64,000 bases of DNA from Octopus vulgaris. Lineage: Eukaryota. The stretch is from assembly GCA_951406725.2 (NCBI GenBank), contig OX597818.1, positions 33,046,001 through 33,110,000 of the forward strand. The letters run 5' to 3'. Shown piece after piece: positions 1 to 45,957 of the stretch. The first letter of the stretch is position 1. The number at the start of each line of letters is the position of its first letter. A program made the position numbers and the translations under genes. A model generated the notes under the pieces. The model did no database searches. It was given only the letters and a program-made list of their open reading frames with translations, and was not told the DNA's origin.

Positions 1-680
1 CAACACAGAATACTACACGCCACAAATACGTACCCAATCCTGCGCATGAGCGTAATGCTTAATTATGAATGTTTAGAAACACGCAGTAACACACACACGG
101 CCTATTTCTATCGCAGTTACAACATAAAAAAAAATCAACGCTCACACACACACACAACCTCACACACGGACAAACACATAAACACATATACGAGATATAT
201 GCACCCATATTATATCATTTAGAGAGGCAAGTATATTGATAAAGAAATAGATAGAATAATTTAATATATAGATATGTATTAATTCTGTGAATCTCTCTCT
301 CCTAATTTCTCTCTCCTTTTTCTCTCTCTCGCTATCTTTCATCACATATATATGTATGTATATATATGTGTGTGAAGCGCCCATATAAATGCTTGTATAC
401 ATCTACCCATGTGAAGACGCGTATACTGACGAGTATATATGTGTGCAAAAATATTTATATTAGTTTAATAGGAACCATAAAAGCACTAAACGAAGCTTTT
501 GACCTATTTAGTGTTTCTATTGCCTTACCTCGAATTCAGAGCTACCCCAAAACATATCTATGATACACATGTTCACATATATAAATGTGAACATATATAT
601 ATATACAAACATTCCCAAACCTGTACATATATATAAATATATGCATATATGTCTACATATATATGCATATATGTATGCGT

Positions 681-33216: not shown

Positions 33217-33494
33217 TCACCTGTCTTTCAATCTTTTTATCATTGTATATATTTCGGTTACATTTTTGTCCCTTTCTCACTCAGTGTCTATACTCTTTCT
33301 ATATAGCTCTCATTTTTTTTTTTCCTAATTTTCACCCTCTCTCCTGCGCCTCTCCTCCTCTAATTTCATCACTTTCCACATTCATTGGTACTTTGAATAG
33401 ATTATTAAATTATACATTTTACGCATGAATGTTTTGTAAAAAAAAAAAGAAAACACGTAAACATTTGTAAGAAAGTATATTTATTAGACCACTC
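33217..33494 (+). repeat. Donor copy of a ~280-bp local direct duplication
   Basis: tcacctgtctttcaatc...ttattagaccactc is repeated at 34255-34535 with small indels. Confidence 0.95.
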
Positions 33495-34254: not shown

Positions 34255-34535
34255 TCACCTGTCTTTCAATCTTTTTATCATTGTATATATTTCTAGGTTA
34301 CATTTTTGTCCCTTTCTCACTCAGTGTCTATACTCTTTCTATATAGCTCTCATTTTTTTTTTTCCTAATTTTCAATCTCTCCTGCGCCTCTTCTCCTCTA
34401 ATTTCATCACTTTCCTCGACATTCATTGGTATTTGAATAGATTATTAAATTATACATTTTACGCATGAATGTTTCGTAAAAAAAAAAGAAAACACGTAAA
34501 CATTTGTAAGAAAGTATATTTATTAGACAGCACTC
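34255..34535 (+). repeat. Second copy of the ~280-bp duplication, fused to the retrozyme 5' junction
   Basis: Begins right after a (TA)n run and ends where the inverted array fragment begins (34536). Confidence 0.95.
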
Positions 34536-34660
34536 CGATAACATAAGGGACTCAGCCATCTGAATATGGCTAGGGACAGAGGCAGGGTGGTGGGGGTGTT
34601 ACTGTTGCATTTAGCCCCAGGCGAACATCGACGTCACCAGAAAGGCTCGACACCGTCACG
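34536..34660 (-). repeat. Inverted partial copy (~125 bp) of the array unit at the 5' end of the array
   Basis: Reverse complement of unit segment 34713-34836 (gtgacggtgtcgagcc...cccttatgttatcg) with only a few differences. Confidence 0.95.
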
Positions 34661-34976
34661 TGTGGTTTCCGCTTCATCGGGGAATTACCTCCCTTTGCAG
34701 GTTAAGGGCACAGTGACGGTGTCGAGCCTTTCTGGTGACGTCGATGTTCGCCTGGGGCTAAATGCAACAGTAACACCCCCACCACCCTGCCCTGTCCCTA
34801 GCCATATTCAGATGGCTTTAGTCCCTTATGTTATCGAGCAGTTACTGTCTATATCTCTCTTAGAGAATTATTATTGCTTTCGAACAGGTTTTCGAAATCA
34901 GCAAATGTATTTTGCTTGAAAATCTATATATGAATATCCTGCAGAGTGAGAATTCGTCGAGGAAGCGGAAGCCTAC

Positions 34977-35022
34977 CACACGCCGACGATAGGCAATACA
35001 CCTTGAAACCATGGTCCGTGTG
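34977..35022 (+). ncRNA. Type I hammerhead ribozyme (unit 1); predicted cleavage after GUC at 35016
   Basis: Stem I cacacg/cgtgtg; core CCGACGA (U4C variant of CUGANGA); stem II agg/cct with loop caataca and U.U at 10.1/11.1; GAAA; palindromic stem III ACCAUGGU; triplet GUC. Confidence 0.85.
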
Positions 35023-35333
35023 TGGTTTCCGCTTCATCGGGGAATTACCTCCCTTTGCAGGTTAAGGGCACCGTGACGGTGTCGAGCCTTTCTGGTGACG
35101 TCGATGTTCGCCTGGGGCTAAATGCAACAGTAACACCCCACCACCCTGCCCTGTCCCTAGCCATATTCAGATGGCTTTAGTCCCTTATGTTATCGAGCAG
35201 TTACTGTCTATATCTCTTAGAGAATTATTATTGCTTTCGAACAGATTTTCGAAATCAGCAAATGTATTTTGCTTGAAAATCTATATATGAATATCCTGCA
35301 GAGTGAGAATTCGTCGAGGTAGCGGAAGCCTAC

Positions 35334-35379
35334 CACACGCCGACGATAGGCAATACACCTTGAAACCATGGTCCGTGTG
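35334..35379 (+). ncRNA. Type I hammerhead ribozyme (unit 2); cleavage after 35373
   Basis: Same motif as 34977-35022. Confidence 0.85.
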
Positions 35380-35693
35380 TGGTTTCCGCTTCATCGGGGA
35401 ATTACCTCCCTTTGCAGGTTAAGGGCACCGTGACGGTGTCGAGCCTTTCTGGTGACGTCGATGTTCGCCTGGGGCTAAATGCAACAGTAACACCCCCACC
35501 ACCCTGCCCTGTCCCTAGCCATATTCAGATGGCTTTAGTCCCTTATGTTATCGAGCAGTTACTGTCTATATCTCTCTTAGAGAATTATTATTGCTTTCGA
35601 ACAGATTTTCGAAATCAGCAAATGTATTTTGCTTGAAAATCTATATATGAATATCCTGCAGAGTGAGAATTCGTCGAGGAAGCGGAAGCCTAC

Positions 35694-35739
35694 CACACGC
35701 CGACGATAGGCAATACACCTTGAAACCATGGTCCGTGTG
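35694..35739 (+). ncRNA. Type I hammerhead ribozyme (unit 3); cleavage after 35733
   Basis: Same motif. Confidence 0.85.
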
Positions 35740-36052
35740 TGGTTTCCGCTTCATCGGGGAATTACCTGCCTTTGCAGGTTAAGGGCACCGTGACGGTGTC
35801 GAGCCTTTCTGGTGACGTCGATGTTCGCCTGGGGCTAAATGCAACAGTAACACCCCCACCACCCTGCCCTGTCCCTAGCCATATTCAGATGGCTTTAGTC
35901 CCTTATGTTATCGAGCAGTTACTGTCTATATCTCTTTAGAGAATTATTATTGCTTTCGAACAGATTTTCGAAATCAGCAAATGTATTTTGCTTGAAAATC
36001 TATATATGAATATCCTGCAGAGTGAGAATTCGTCGAGGAAGCGGAAGCCTAC

Positions 36053-36098
36053 CACACGCCGACGATAGGCAATACACCTTGAAACCATGGTCCGTGTG
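36053..36098 (+). ncRNA. Type I hammerhead ribozyme (unit 4); cleavage after 36092
   Basis: Same motif. Confidence 0.85.
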
Positions 36099-36411
36099 TG
36101 GTTTCCGCTTCATCGGGGAATTACCTCCCTTTGCAGGTTAAGGGCACCGTGACGGTGTCGAGCCTTTCTGGTGACGTCGATGTTCGCCTGGGGCTAAATG
36201 CAACAGTAACACCCCCACCACCCTGCCCTGTCCCTAGCCATATTCAGATGGCTTTAGTCCCTTATGTTATCGAGCAGTTACTGTCTATATCTCTTTAGAG
36301 AATTATTATTGCTTTCGAACAGATTTTCGAAATCAGCAAATGTATTTTGCTTGAAAATCTATATATGAATATCCTGCAGAGTGAGAATTCGTCGAGGAAG
36401 CGGAAGCCTAC

Positions 36412-36457
36412 CACACGCCGACGATAGGCAATACACCTTGAAACCATGGTCCGTGTG
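36412..36457 (+). ncRNA. Type I hammerhead ribozyme (unit 5); cleavage after 36451
   Basis: Same motif. Confidence 0.85.
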
Positions 36458-36771
36458 TGGTTTCCGCTTCATCGGGGAATTACCTGCCTTTGCAGGTTAA
36501 GGGCACCGTGACGGTGTCGAGCCTTTCTGGTGACGTCGATGTTCGCCTGGGGCTAAATGCAACAGTAACACCCCCACCACCCTGCCCTGTCCCTAGCCAT
36601 ATTCAGATGGCTTTAGTCCCTTATGTTATCGAGCAGTTACTGTCTATATCTCTCTTAGAGAATTATTATTGCTTTCGAACAGATTTTCGAAATCAGCAAA
36701 TGTATTTTGCTTGAAAATCTATATATGAATATCCTGCAGAGTGAGAATTCGTCGAGGAAGCGGAAGCCTAC

Positions 36772-36817
36772 CACACGCCGACGATAGGCAATACACCTTG
36801 AAACCATGGTCCGTGTG
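36772..36817 (+). ncRNA. Type I hammerhead ribozyme (unit 6); cleavage after 36811
   Basis: Same motif. Confidence 0.85.
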
Positions 36818-36985
36818 TGGTTTCCGCTTCATCGGGGAATTACCTCCCTTTGCAGGTTAAGGGCACCGTGACGGTGTCGAGCCTTTCTGGTGACGTCGAT
36901 GTTCGCCTGGGGCTAAATGCAACAGTAACACCCCCACCACCCTGCCCTGTCCCTAGCCATATTCAGATGGCTTTAGTCCCTTATG

Positions 36986-37054
<69 letters not shown>

Positions 37055-37161
37055 AGCGGAAATGAAACTTTACTTCTGTAAAATCAGCGACTGTGTGTTT
37101 TCTTGAAATATATACATTGCGAGCAGAAGCGAGGTGCTACCATCTCTAACAGACGAGGTGT

Positions 37162-37212
37162 CTGGTACTGTGGAGTTTCAGATATAGCCCGAAACCAGAA
37201 CTGGTCTACCGG
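37162..37212 (+). ncRNA. Divergent type I hammerhead, probably degenerate
   Basis: Stem I ctggta/taccgg; core CTGTGGA (A6 to U); weak stem II; GAAA; stem III accag-aa-ctggt; GUC ends at 37206. Flanks also pair (ctaccatct/aggtggtag, gcgagg/tttcgc). Confidence 0.7.
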
Positions 37213-37599
37213 TCCTGTCGCTAGAAGGTGGTAGGGTTTCGCACCCCTGCGCACAATTTATCGGATGCAGCTGTCATTAGTCAACCGACCAGAGATGTCC
37301 CTTTGGGGATAAAAAAACCGCAGTTGAGTCCGGTCGAACGAACAGCCATGTTAAATTGGCTACGAATATTAGTTATATGTGGATATATATATATCAAATA
37401 GATGTCTTATAAAACAATAACAGCCATCCTCAGTTGCCCCACGGATATCAGAATGGTTTCGAAACCTGGAGAGTACCATTCAATACGGCACTGTCAACAG
37501 CACTAAAATATGTGTTGCTTCGGAACAAACGTAGATATCACCACATTCATTCAATCTTAATTCTTGGAAGGATTAAACACTAACATTATTAAACACTAC

Positions 37600-37688
<89 letters not shown>

Positions 37689-37802
37689 GTGTGTGTGTGT
37701 GTGTGCGCGTGTGTGGAGAATAAATGTGGCTAACTACTAAGGGTGGTTGCTACTGTAGCTTGTAGCCCCAGGAGAACATCTCCAGCTGGCTATTGACATA
37801 CT

Positions 37803-37899
<97 letters not shown>

Positions 37900-38007
37900 C
37901 GTAAATTCATTGCAGTTACCAGCACTTCCTGCTTGTCTTCAATGTCCTGTTTGTGTTACCTGTTTTGCCTCTCCTTAAAATCCCAAATTTTATTTAATTA
38001 GCTTGGC

Positions 38008-43535: not shown

Positions 43536-44119
43536 AAGGCGGCGAGCTGGCAGAAACGTTAGCACGCCGGGCGAAATGCTTAGCGGTATTTCGTCTGCCA
43601 TTACGTTCTGAGTTCAAATTCCGCCGAGATCGACTTTGCCTTTCATCCTTTCGGGGTCGATTAAATAAGTACCAGTTACGCACTGGAGTCGATATAATCG
43701 ACTTAAACCGTGTGTCTGTCCTTGTTTGTCTTCTCTGTGTTTAGCCCCTTGTGGGTAGTAAAGTAATAAGTATTTAGTCTGCCGCTACGTTCTGAGTTGA
43801 AATTCCGCTAGGGTCGACTTTGCCTTTCATCCTTTCGGGGTCGATTAAATTAAGTACCAGTTGCGCACTGGGGTCGATATAATCGGCTTAATTCGATTGT
43901 CTGTCCTTGTTTGTCCTCTCTGTGTTTAGCCCCTTGTGGGTAGTAAAGAAATAGGTATTTCGTTTGTCTTTACGTTCTGAGTTCAAATTCCGCCAAGGTC
44001 AGCTTTGCCTTTCATCCTTTCAAGATCGATAAATAAAGTACCAGCTGCTTACTGGGGTCGATCTAATCGACTGGCCCCAGCCACCCAAAATTTCTGGCCT
44101 TGTGCCTAGAGTAGAAAAG
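43536..44119 (+). mobile_element. SINE family B trimer (one head plus 3 tandem bodies) with a 16-bp TSD
   Basis: TSD attttaatgtaggctt at 43520-43535 and 44120-44135; the tacgttctgagtt...cctttcatccttt body occurs three times. Confidence 0.9.
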
Positions 44120-45167: not shown

Positions 45168-45957
45168 AGGGCGGAGAGCTGGCAGAATCGTTAGCACGCC
45201 AGGTGAAATTCTTAGTGGTATTTCATCTGCCGCTACGTTCTGAGTTCAAATTCCGCCGAGGTCGACTTTGCCTTTCATCCTTTCGGGGTCGATTAAATAA
45301 GTACCAGTTACGTACTGGGGTCGATATAATCGACTTAATCCGTGTGTCCGTCTTTGTTTGTCCTCTGTGTTTAGCCCCATGTGGGTAGTAAAGAAATAGG
45401 TATTTCGTCTGCCGTTACGTTCTGAGTTCAAATTCCACTGAGGTCGACTTTGCCTTTCATCCTTTCGGGGTCGATTAAATAAGTACCAGTTACGCACTGG
45501 GGTCGATGTAATCGACTTAATCCGTTTGTCTGTCCTTGTTTGTCCCCTCTGTGTGTTTGCCCCTTGTGGGTAGTAAAGAAATAGGTAATTCGTCTGTCAC
45601 AACGTTCTGAGTTCAAATACCGCCGAGGTCGACTTTGCCTTTCATTCTTTCGGGGTCAATAAATTGAGTACCAGTTACGCACTGGGGTCGATATAATCAA
45701 CTTGATCCGCTTGTCTGTCCTTGTTTGTCATCTCTGTGTTTAGCCCCTTGTGGGTAGTAAGGAAATAGAAATAGGTATTTCATCTTCAACTACGTTCTGA
45801 GTTCAAATTTTACTGAGGTCGACATTGCCTTTCATCCTTTCGAGGTCGATTAAATAAATACCAGTTATGCATTGGGGTCGATGTAATCGACTCAATCCTG
45901 TTGTCTGTCCTTGTTTGTCCCCTCTATGTCTAGCTCCTTGTGGGCAATAAAGAAATA
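45168..45957 (+). mobile_element. SINE family B tetramer nested inside an antisense family B copy
   Basis: Four ~180-bp bodies flanked by aatac(c/t)tattttatc on both sides. The interrupted minus-strand copy continues at ~45960-46027. Confidence 0.85.

Follow-up and report, generated by a model that had tools for sequence, protein, structure and literature searches.

The tandem array at this octopus locus begins within a few bases of the point at which each of its units is predicted to be cut by a hammerhead ribozyme, which raises the question of whether the inserted cDNA ends there because its RNA template had cleaved itself. The sequence-only reading of the window (the whole 64,000-nt stretch of Octopus vulgaris DNA that was analysed) had proposed this, and had regarded the coincidence as independent evidence that the ribozyme was active and that the array arose by retrotransposition rather than only by unequal crossing-over.

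The locus and its predicted ribozyme

Positions in the repeat are counted from the first base past the predicted cut (monomer +1, window position 35374) in a unit of 360 nt, with one real window monomer serving as the reference. An arm is a run of monomer sequence in a single orientation. The features of the locus are as follows:

34255..34535 (+): left flank, a 95% copy of 33217-33494
34536..34660 (-): inverted arm, monomer 56-180 (blastn, 97.6% over 126 nt)
34659..34660: head-to-head junction of both arms, with a 1-nt overlap
34660..36989 (+): forward arm, 6.5 tandem 360-nt monomers with 99% matches, from monomer +4 to the fixed 3′ end at 178
35322..35389 (+): one of six predicted type I hammerheads, with the cut after 35373 (by-eye reading, constrained fold, covariation)
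35552..35595 (+), in unit 3: monomer 179-222, the 44-nt ‘tail’ between the family’s two fixed 3′ ends
36987..37051: (TA)n microsatellite at the forward-arm 3′ end, the putative target

The motif GTC directly followed by CGTGTGTGG, with the cut predicted between the two, occurs six times in the array at a spacing of 357-360 nt, as the sequence-only reading had described. The predicted cuts fall after 35016, 35373, 35733, 36092, 36451 and 36811. The array start at 34660, about 3 nt past the scissile bond, was likewise confirmed as monomer +4; position 34660 is the junction with the inverted arm and 1 nt is common to both arms, which leaves +4 and +5 as equivalent starts. To begin at +1, the arm would need a 2-nt GT deletion, which is rare elsewhere (1/24 rows). 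Two variants recur in the array, in non-adjacent or adjacent units, and the array is far longer than its partner arm.

Relative to the array, the inverted arm shows a single insertion, a single deletion and a single substitution (3 differences in 126 nt), and it is without the 181-222 tail and the (TA)n end that are usual for partner arms. A 281-bp direct duplication (33217-33494 / 34255-34535, 95%) abuts its outer end exactly. This outer end may have been replaced by a local rearrangement, or the arrangement may be a feature of the assembly. Another subfamily or an autonomous partner was considered as the source of the odd outer end and rejected, the adjoining sequence being the local duplication of 33217-33494.

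The predicted hammerhead, as read by eye, consists of a bulged helix I, the core CCGACGA (U4C), GAAA and GUC. Helix II has a U.U at its base (10.1/11.1) followed by 3 bp, and helix III has 2 bp and a palindromic CAUG loop. Palindromic loops of this kind make cleavage as a dimer possible, and the U3-A8 pair is on record as a natural covariation (PMC4209133). When each variant is counted once per locus over the 162 loci sampled below, positions 3/8 are C-G in 65 cases, U.G in 16, U-A in 11 and C-A in 1, which places 92 of 93 locus-variants in the first three states. The helix III loop is CATG in 72, CTAG in 15 and another sequence in 5, and is thus a palindrome in 87 of 92; the exchange of CATG and CTAG is a double change that preserves the palindrome. 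This covariation suggests that the ribozyme is under selection, and we infer from these features that the 360-nt unit would be active as a ribozyme.

Several observations count against this reading. The core departs from the canonical form (U4C, U.U), and the monomer in its active fold lies far above the minimum-energy fold (-11.4 versus -28.9 kcal/mol under constrained folding). Rfam is also blank: it gave 0 matches at gathering score over the whole window, and a search of 34400-37900 with E up to 10 gave 46 matches among which a hammerhead was absent, the top ones lying on AT/AC microsatellites. U4C is found naturally in a viroid with lowered activity (PMC3088659). The axolotl retrozyme hammerhead HHR_Amex2, which resembles the octopus motif in its U.U at the base of helix II and its 2-bp helix III, is described as able to cleave, and to do so better as a dimer (PMC7229834).

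A dispersed family of two-arm insertions

A 22-mer from the monomer has 2332 exact matches in the 2.8-Gb genome, against 0 for a control. Exact matches to patterns made of an arm end plus AT comprise 542 arms ending at monomer 178 and 775 ending at 222 genome-wide. The 360-nt repeat is dispersed over several hundred loci and has the form of a short non-coding tandem repeat (150-450 bp) present at many such loci. Statistics were taken on 162 loci drawn in positional order from the 22-mer list and the two end-plus-AT lists, the window locus not being included. These loci provided 283 arms after 14 had been dropped because they had a different 3′ end or lay at the edge of a locus; four of the 162 yielded no arm, and pieces shorter than 25 nt were ignored. 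A further 40 best-hit loci were excluded unless also position-listed, because they are biased to full monomers.

The 3′ ends of the arms cluster at monomer 178 and 222. Canonical two-arm head-to-head insertions account for 112 of the 162 loci, and 46 loci are single-armed or complex. Both ends are canonical in 112 of the 122 head-to-head junctions, and all of these join a 178 arm to a 222 arm, with no 178+178 or 222+222 pair among them. The set chosen by the 222 end gave 178+222 in 29/29 cases, although 222+222 would be enriched there. In the sample, 254/284 arm 3′ ends run into (TA)n, a figure that is partly built in by the end-plus-AT patterns, which demanded AT after the end; at loci chosen without the AT requirement, most ends also enter (TA)n. 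Three loci (L190, L172 and L307) are very long two-armed arrays of about 3+3, 3+5 and 3.7+2.5 kb, respectively, and form large perfect inverted repeats.

The footprint described for Penelope elements combines a truncated copy in inverted orientation with a one-sided tail and a bias for (TA)n (PMC8557442, PMC3846280). The octopus family has an inverted 5′-truncated head-to-head copy (at the window locus too), a one-sided tail and a (TA)n target. At the window locus, the tail end has been lost to the flank rearrangement.

The distribution of 5′ ends around the predicted cut

If inserted cDNAs ended where self-cleaved templates end, 5′ ends should peak just after the GUC, and this peak is absent. 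Only 6 of 283 arm 5′ ends lie at +1..+5 (2.1%, CI 0.8-4.6%; uniform expectation 1.4%, p=0.30), while 81 lie at 10-60 and 25 at 301-360. The GUC is crossed at least once by 168 of the 283 arms, with 314 read-throughs in total, and the window forward arm itself crosses six intact GUC sites. Taken together, the 5′ ends depart from uniformity (chi-square p=4e-14): they are broadly enriched at +10..+60 and depleted upstream of the cut. The uniform spread that the sequence-only reading had named as the contrary outcome is therefore not seen over all ends, but it does hold for the class of long insertions to which the window locus belongs (p=0.46).

End counts were extended to the genome using patterns that demand non-consensus bases upstream of an anchor. 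The pattern window 353..+9 returned 27 rows, which by eye comprise 14 ends at +1..+5, among them that of the window locus, together with 10 at 353-360 and 3 at +6..+9; one of these last three is without a family arm. By the same inspection, 5 of the 27 end exactly at +2. The window 13-29 returned 38 rows, and the window 337-352 about 16 true junctions by eye in 75 rows, its pattern having been swamped by indel variants. Corrected for capture, the number of ends per base is about 9.8 at +1..+5, 4.4 at 353-360, 6.4 at 13-29 and 2.7 at 337-352. The density at +1..+5 is not above that of the downstream window (p=0.29) and is 2-3x that of the upstream ones (p=0.003). A second pattern pair, from which positions 23-26 were omitted because of chance matches, gave 8 ends in 5 nt, to be compared with 19 in 13 nt on the downstream side (p=0.83) and 9 in 11 nt on the upstream side (p=0.19). 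The cut site marks a step in end density, with no spike.

Much of this distribution traces to a class of short insertions. Both arms end inside the terminal monomer in 36 of the 112 pairs (the 178 arm does so in 40 and the 222 arm in 48; odds ratio 45). The ends of this short class span +14 to +166, and none is nearer the cut, which places all of them at least 14 nt short of the GUC. Six further pairs overshoot the cut by 15-34 nt, and the next 105 nt are free of any pair’s farther end. The association within pairs is strongest with the boundary placed between -30 and +30. The +10..+60 excess is mostly this short two-arm class; the uniform ends noted above are the 152 ends of the other 76 pairs. 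In the first pass, 63/231 arms stop in +1..+60 versus 16/168 in the next 60 nt (p=7e-6). Later passes give 27/173 versus 9/146 when pooled (p=0.008), and 7/34 versus 3/27 in the replicate alone (p=0.49).

Two sources could account for the short class. It could derive from cut linear monomers whose cDNAs were trimmed before joining, which is what survives of the original proposal. It could also derive from RT stalling in a predicted long helix that pairs monomer 2-48 with 279-327; in 20-nt bins, the stop rate correlates with predicted pairing to a downstream partner (rho 0.71). Divergence does not differ between the short and long classes (p=0.66). Among two-arm loci, the short class is rarer in one subfamily (6/35) than in another (16/39), a gap that could reflect different templates or different ribozyme activity.

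About 4% of two-arm loci show a start at the cut, and the start of the window array three bases past the predicted cut is likely to be chance. Because the long-class ends are uniform and no peak occurs at +1..+5, the coincidence does not count as independent evidence for an active ribozyme: the match is no closer than chance allows, and with the failure of the cut-site claim the window locus offers no proof that the ribozyme was active. The logic of that claim is familiar from elements of the R2/R1 type, in which an HDV-like ribozyme sets the 5′ end. The octopus family differs from them in that just 2% of its ends lie at the cut, and the ribozyme therefore does not define the inserted 5′ end; neither the sample (6/283) nor the genome-wide windows contain a peak at the scissile bond.

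Template, integration and related elements

Sequence variation bears on the template that was copied. Arms of one locus differ at 0.39% of sites, versus 2.9% between loci (83 pairs). In-register and out-of-register monomers are equally divergent (0.30% versus 0.30%), as a monomer bottleneck predicts. Multimer loci contain 101 singleton differences versus 8 common to several copies, and five rare variants in them are fixed in every copy of both arms. The simplest reading is that two coupled RTs made repeated copies of one monomer sequence, as would happen on a circle, although clonal arms could also come from homogeneous linear source arrays. Two observations count against the circle: the step at the cut in later passes is outside the predictions of a pure circle model, and the arms of the window locus differ at 3 places in 126 nt. 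A 390-nt contig (360+30) present in 3/4 sequencing runs is equally expected from tandem DNA, multimer RNA or a circle.

The locus is probably best explained as a two-armed non-LTR retrozyme insertion, copied in trans by a Penelope-like enzyme from what was likely a circular monomer template, with the start at the cut likely due to chance. In the proposed mechanism, tandem transcripts would self-cleave as dimeric hammerheads and be ligated to monomer circles, and a dimeric RT/GIY-YIG protein would nick both strands of a (TA)n tract. One cDNA would then be primed at 178 and the other at 222. Both would circle the template, often for several turns, with about a third aborting jointly in the first pass, and the cDNA 3′ ends would be joined, blunt or via short microhomology, at whatever point they had stopped. 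The ribozyme would act upstream, making the template and leaving the cDNA end unset. Retrotransposition itself, the other conclusion of the sequence-only reading, stands because the copies are dispersed, lie at (TA)n sites and have fixed 3′ ends at 178 and 222, with one of each per insertion; the argument from the cut site does not hold.

A more specific form of this mechanism is offered tentatively. A dimeric Penelope enzyme would hold one ribozyme-made circle, on which both target strands would be primed at two fixed sites 44 nt apart, one per protomer. Rolling-circle copying would then proceed in both directions away from the target before the two cDNA ends were joined. If true, a single cycle of a dimer on a circle would account for the head-to-head inversion, for the PLE tail and for the way in which retrozyme arrays are born; the short class would represent either an abortive first pass or linear cut monomers.

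Copying of an uncut linear multimer transcript, with no part for the ribozyme in insertion and with the +10..+60 excess produced by RT stalling in the 2-48:279-327 helix, is a somewhat unlikely alternative. It accommodates the crossing of the GUC by most arms and the correlation of stop rate with predicted pairing, and in vitro insertion by the anole Penelope protein is described as unimpaired by ribozyme mutants (PMC11167929). A multimer template should, however, pass private variants on monomer by monomer, which is not seen, and it leaves the rare variants fixed in both arms and the covariation that suggests selection on the ribozyme without a place. Stops are also rarest at 281-320, where the RT would enter the helix in later monomers.

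The original proposal, in which a linear RNA cut at the GUC was the template and the window cDNA reached within three bases of its 5′ end, is unlikely, as ends rarely lie at the cut. In its favour, the window array starts at +4 and its partner arm stops at 56, short of that site; ends at +1..+5 are denser than at 337-360, a fifth or so of the 27 genome-wide rows end exactly at +2 as judged by eye, and the step is seen in first and later passes. Against it stand the proportion of ends at the cut, the lack of any excess over +10..+29, the six GUC sites crossed by the window arm and the distance that short-class ends keep from the cut. Among two-arm cases with an end at +1..+5, the partner arm crosses the same in-register GUC in 8 of 12 resolvable cases, which is relevant only if both arms copied one molecule.

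Rather improbable, too, is the view that insertions were born short and that arrays grew later by unequal crossing-over. The 99% likeness of the units, the great length of the window array relative to its partner and the two recurring variants agree with it, and local amplification is discussed for retrozymes (10.64898/2026.07.22.740005). Against it, the reach of paired arms correlates (rho 0.66, n=112), with rho 0.31 in the 60 pairs in which both arms cross the GUC and 0.03 in the replicate set, which has 14 such pairs. Both arms extend over several kb in L190, L172 and L307, and rare variants are fixed across inverted arms. Retrozyme arrays are likely to have been born long. A single cDNA that folded back at the junction and primed its own second arm, a route proposed in PMC3846280, is very improbable: 21 of 90 junctions are near-symmetric, with both arms starting within 12 nt of the same monomer position and several lying in palindromes, and the arms have a haplotype in common, but 69 of 90 are asymmetric and no arm lies within its partner: in 49 of 83 pairs the 178 arm is the one that extends farther 5′, and the 222 arm extends farther 3′.

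As a probable non-LTR retrozyme, the element is of a known kind, and its interest lies in the footprint of the family. Like the metazoan non-LTR retrozymes described (PMC7229834; 10.64898/2026.07.22.740005), it is a tandem repeat whose non-coding unit falls within 150-450 bp and carries one predicted type I hammerhead; it also has a rod-like predicted fold and a GC content below 50%, and is dispersed as dimers to multimers. It differs from them in the U4C core of most octopus copies, and also in its mostly two-armed head-to-head copies, whose 3′ ends are fixed at two positions and lie in (TA)n. In the preprint (10.64898/2026.07.22.740005), a word search found ‘inverted’ solely in the reference list and no use of ‘tail’. 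One proposal is that tandem cDNA is copied from circular retrozyme monomers and that Penelope elements are candidate helpers (PMC7229834), and retrozymes have been tied to Penelope pLTRs by phylogeny, with local amplification invoked (10.64898/2026.07.22.740005).

The family also resembles EN+ Penelope-like elements (Penelope/Poseidon, Neptune, Naiad), which are described as having an inverted 5′-truncated copy, an AT-rich or (TA)n target, an optional one-sided tail of 30-40 bp (44 nt in octopus; PMC8557442) and two internal RT start sites with a hammerhead upstream of them (PMC8557442, PMC3846280, PMC11167929). Unlike these elements, the octopus repeat has a 360-nt unit and many-copy tandem arms without an RT/GIY-YIG ORF. 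The window locus contains solely 360-nt units, an ORF scan found no RT/GIY-YIG ORF of at least 180 aa within the arms, and the RT and GIY-YIG ORF between pLTRs that marks an autonomous Penelope-like element is absent. Purified anole Penelope protein cuts and extends both strands and is predicted to be a dimer; two internal start sites bound its tail, and ribozyme cleavage is dispensable in vitro (PMC11167929). In that report, no RNA-seq reads started or ended at the cut site, and the in vitro system showed no strand difference in start site (PMC11167929), whereas octopus insertions use one of each start in 112/112 cases.

Literature searches, mainly of open-access main texts and extending to head-to-head or dimer integration mechanisms and to cephalopod hammerheads, found nothing on the 360-nt family or on strict pairing of the two ends. 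Beyond co-occurrence and phylogeny, the octopus insertions provide footprint evidence that animal retrozymes are mobilised by Penelope machinery. The family is young and numerous enough to serve as a readout of Penelope-type integration, the mechanism of which is called unresolved in the literature. The strict one-of-each starts, the coupled arm lengths and the monomer bottleneck are testable points for the existing in vitro system.

Also against the proposed mechanism, no autonomous partner carrying the 360-nt repeat was identified in the locus flanks searched, although Penelope-like ORF fragments were noted by eye near some loci (L182, L192, L200, L217 and L013). At L123:1964-3034 (-), a 357-aa open frame that is Penelope C-terminal-like by eye lies about 270 bp upstream of a decayed repeat copy; its Pfam search was blank. 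Directly after the (TA)n tract of the window locus, 37052-37240 (+) holds a second, unrelated hammerhead-like motif, read by eye as CAGACGA near 37150, GAAA near 37191 and GTC near 37204, with a stretch of weak similarity to monomer 239-275 (E=0.005) ahead of it. This segment is possibly another Penelope-type repeat. Shortly before another (TA)n, 36 nt at 37745-37780 (-) have 83% identity to monomer 87-122; similar short matches are present in other loci, and the match may be a motif common to related Penelope-type ends. The window also contains two arrays of a 185-bp tandem repeat, at 43586-44072 and 45217-45957, which are 85-87% alike.
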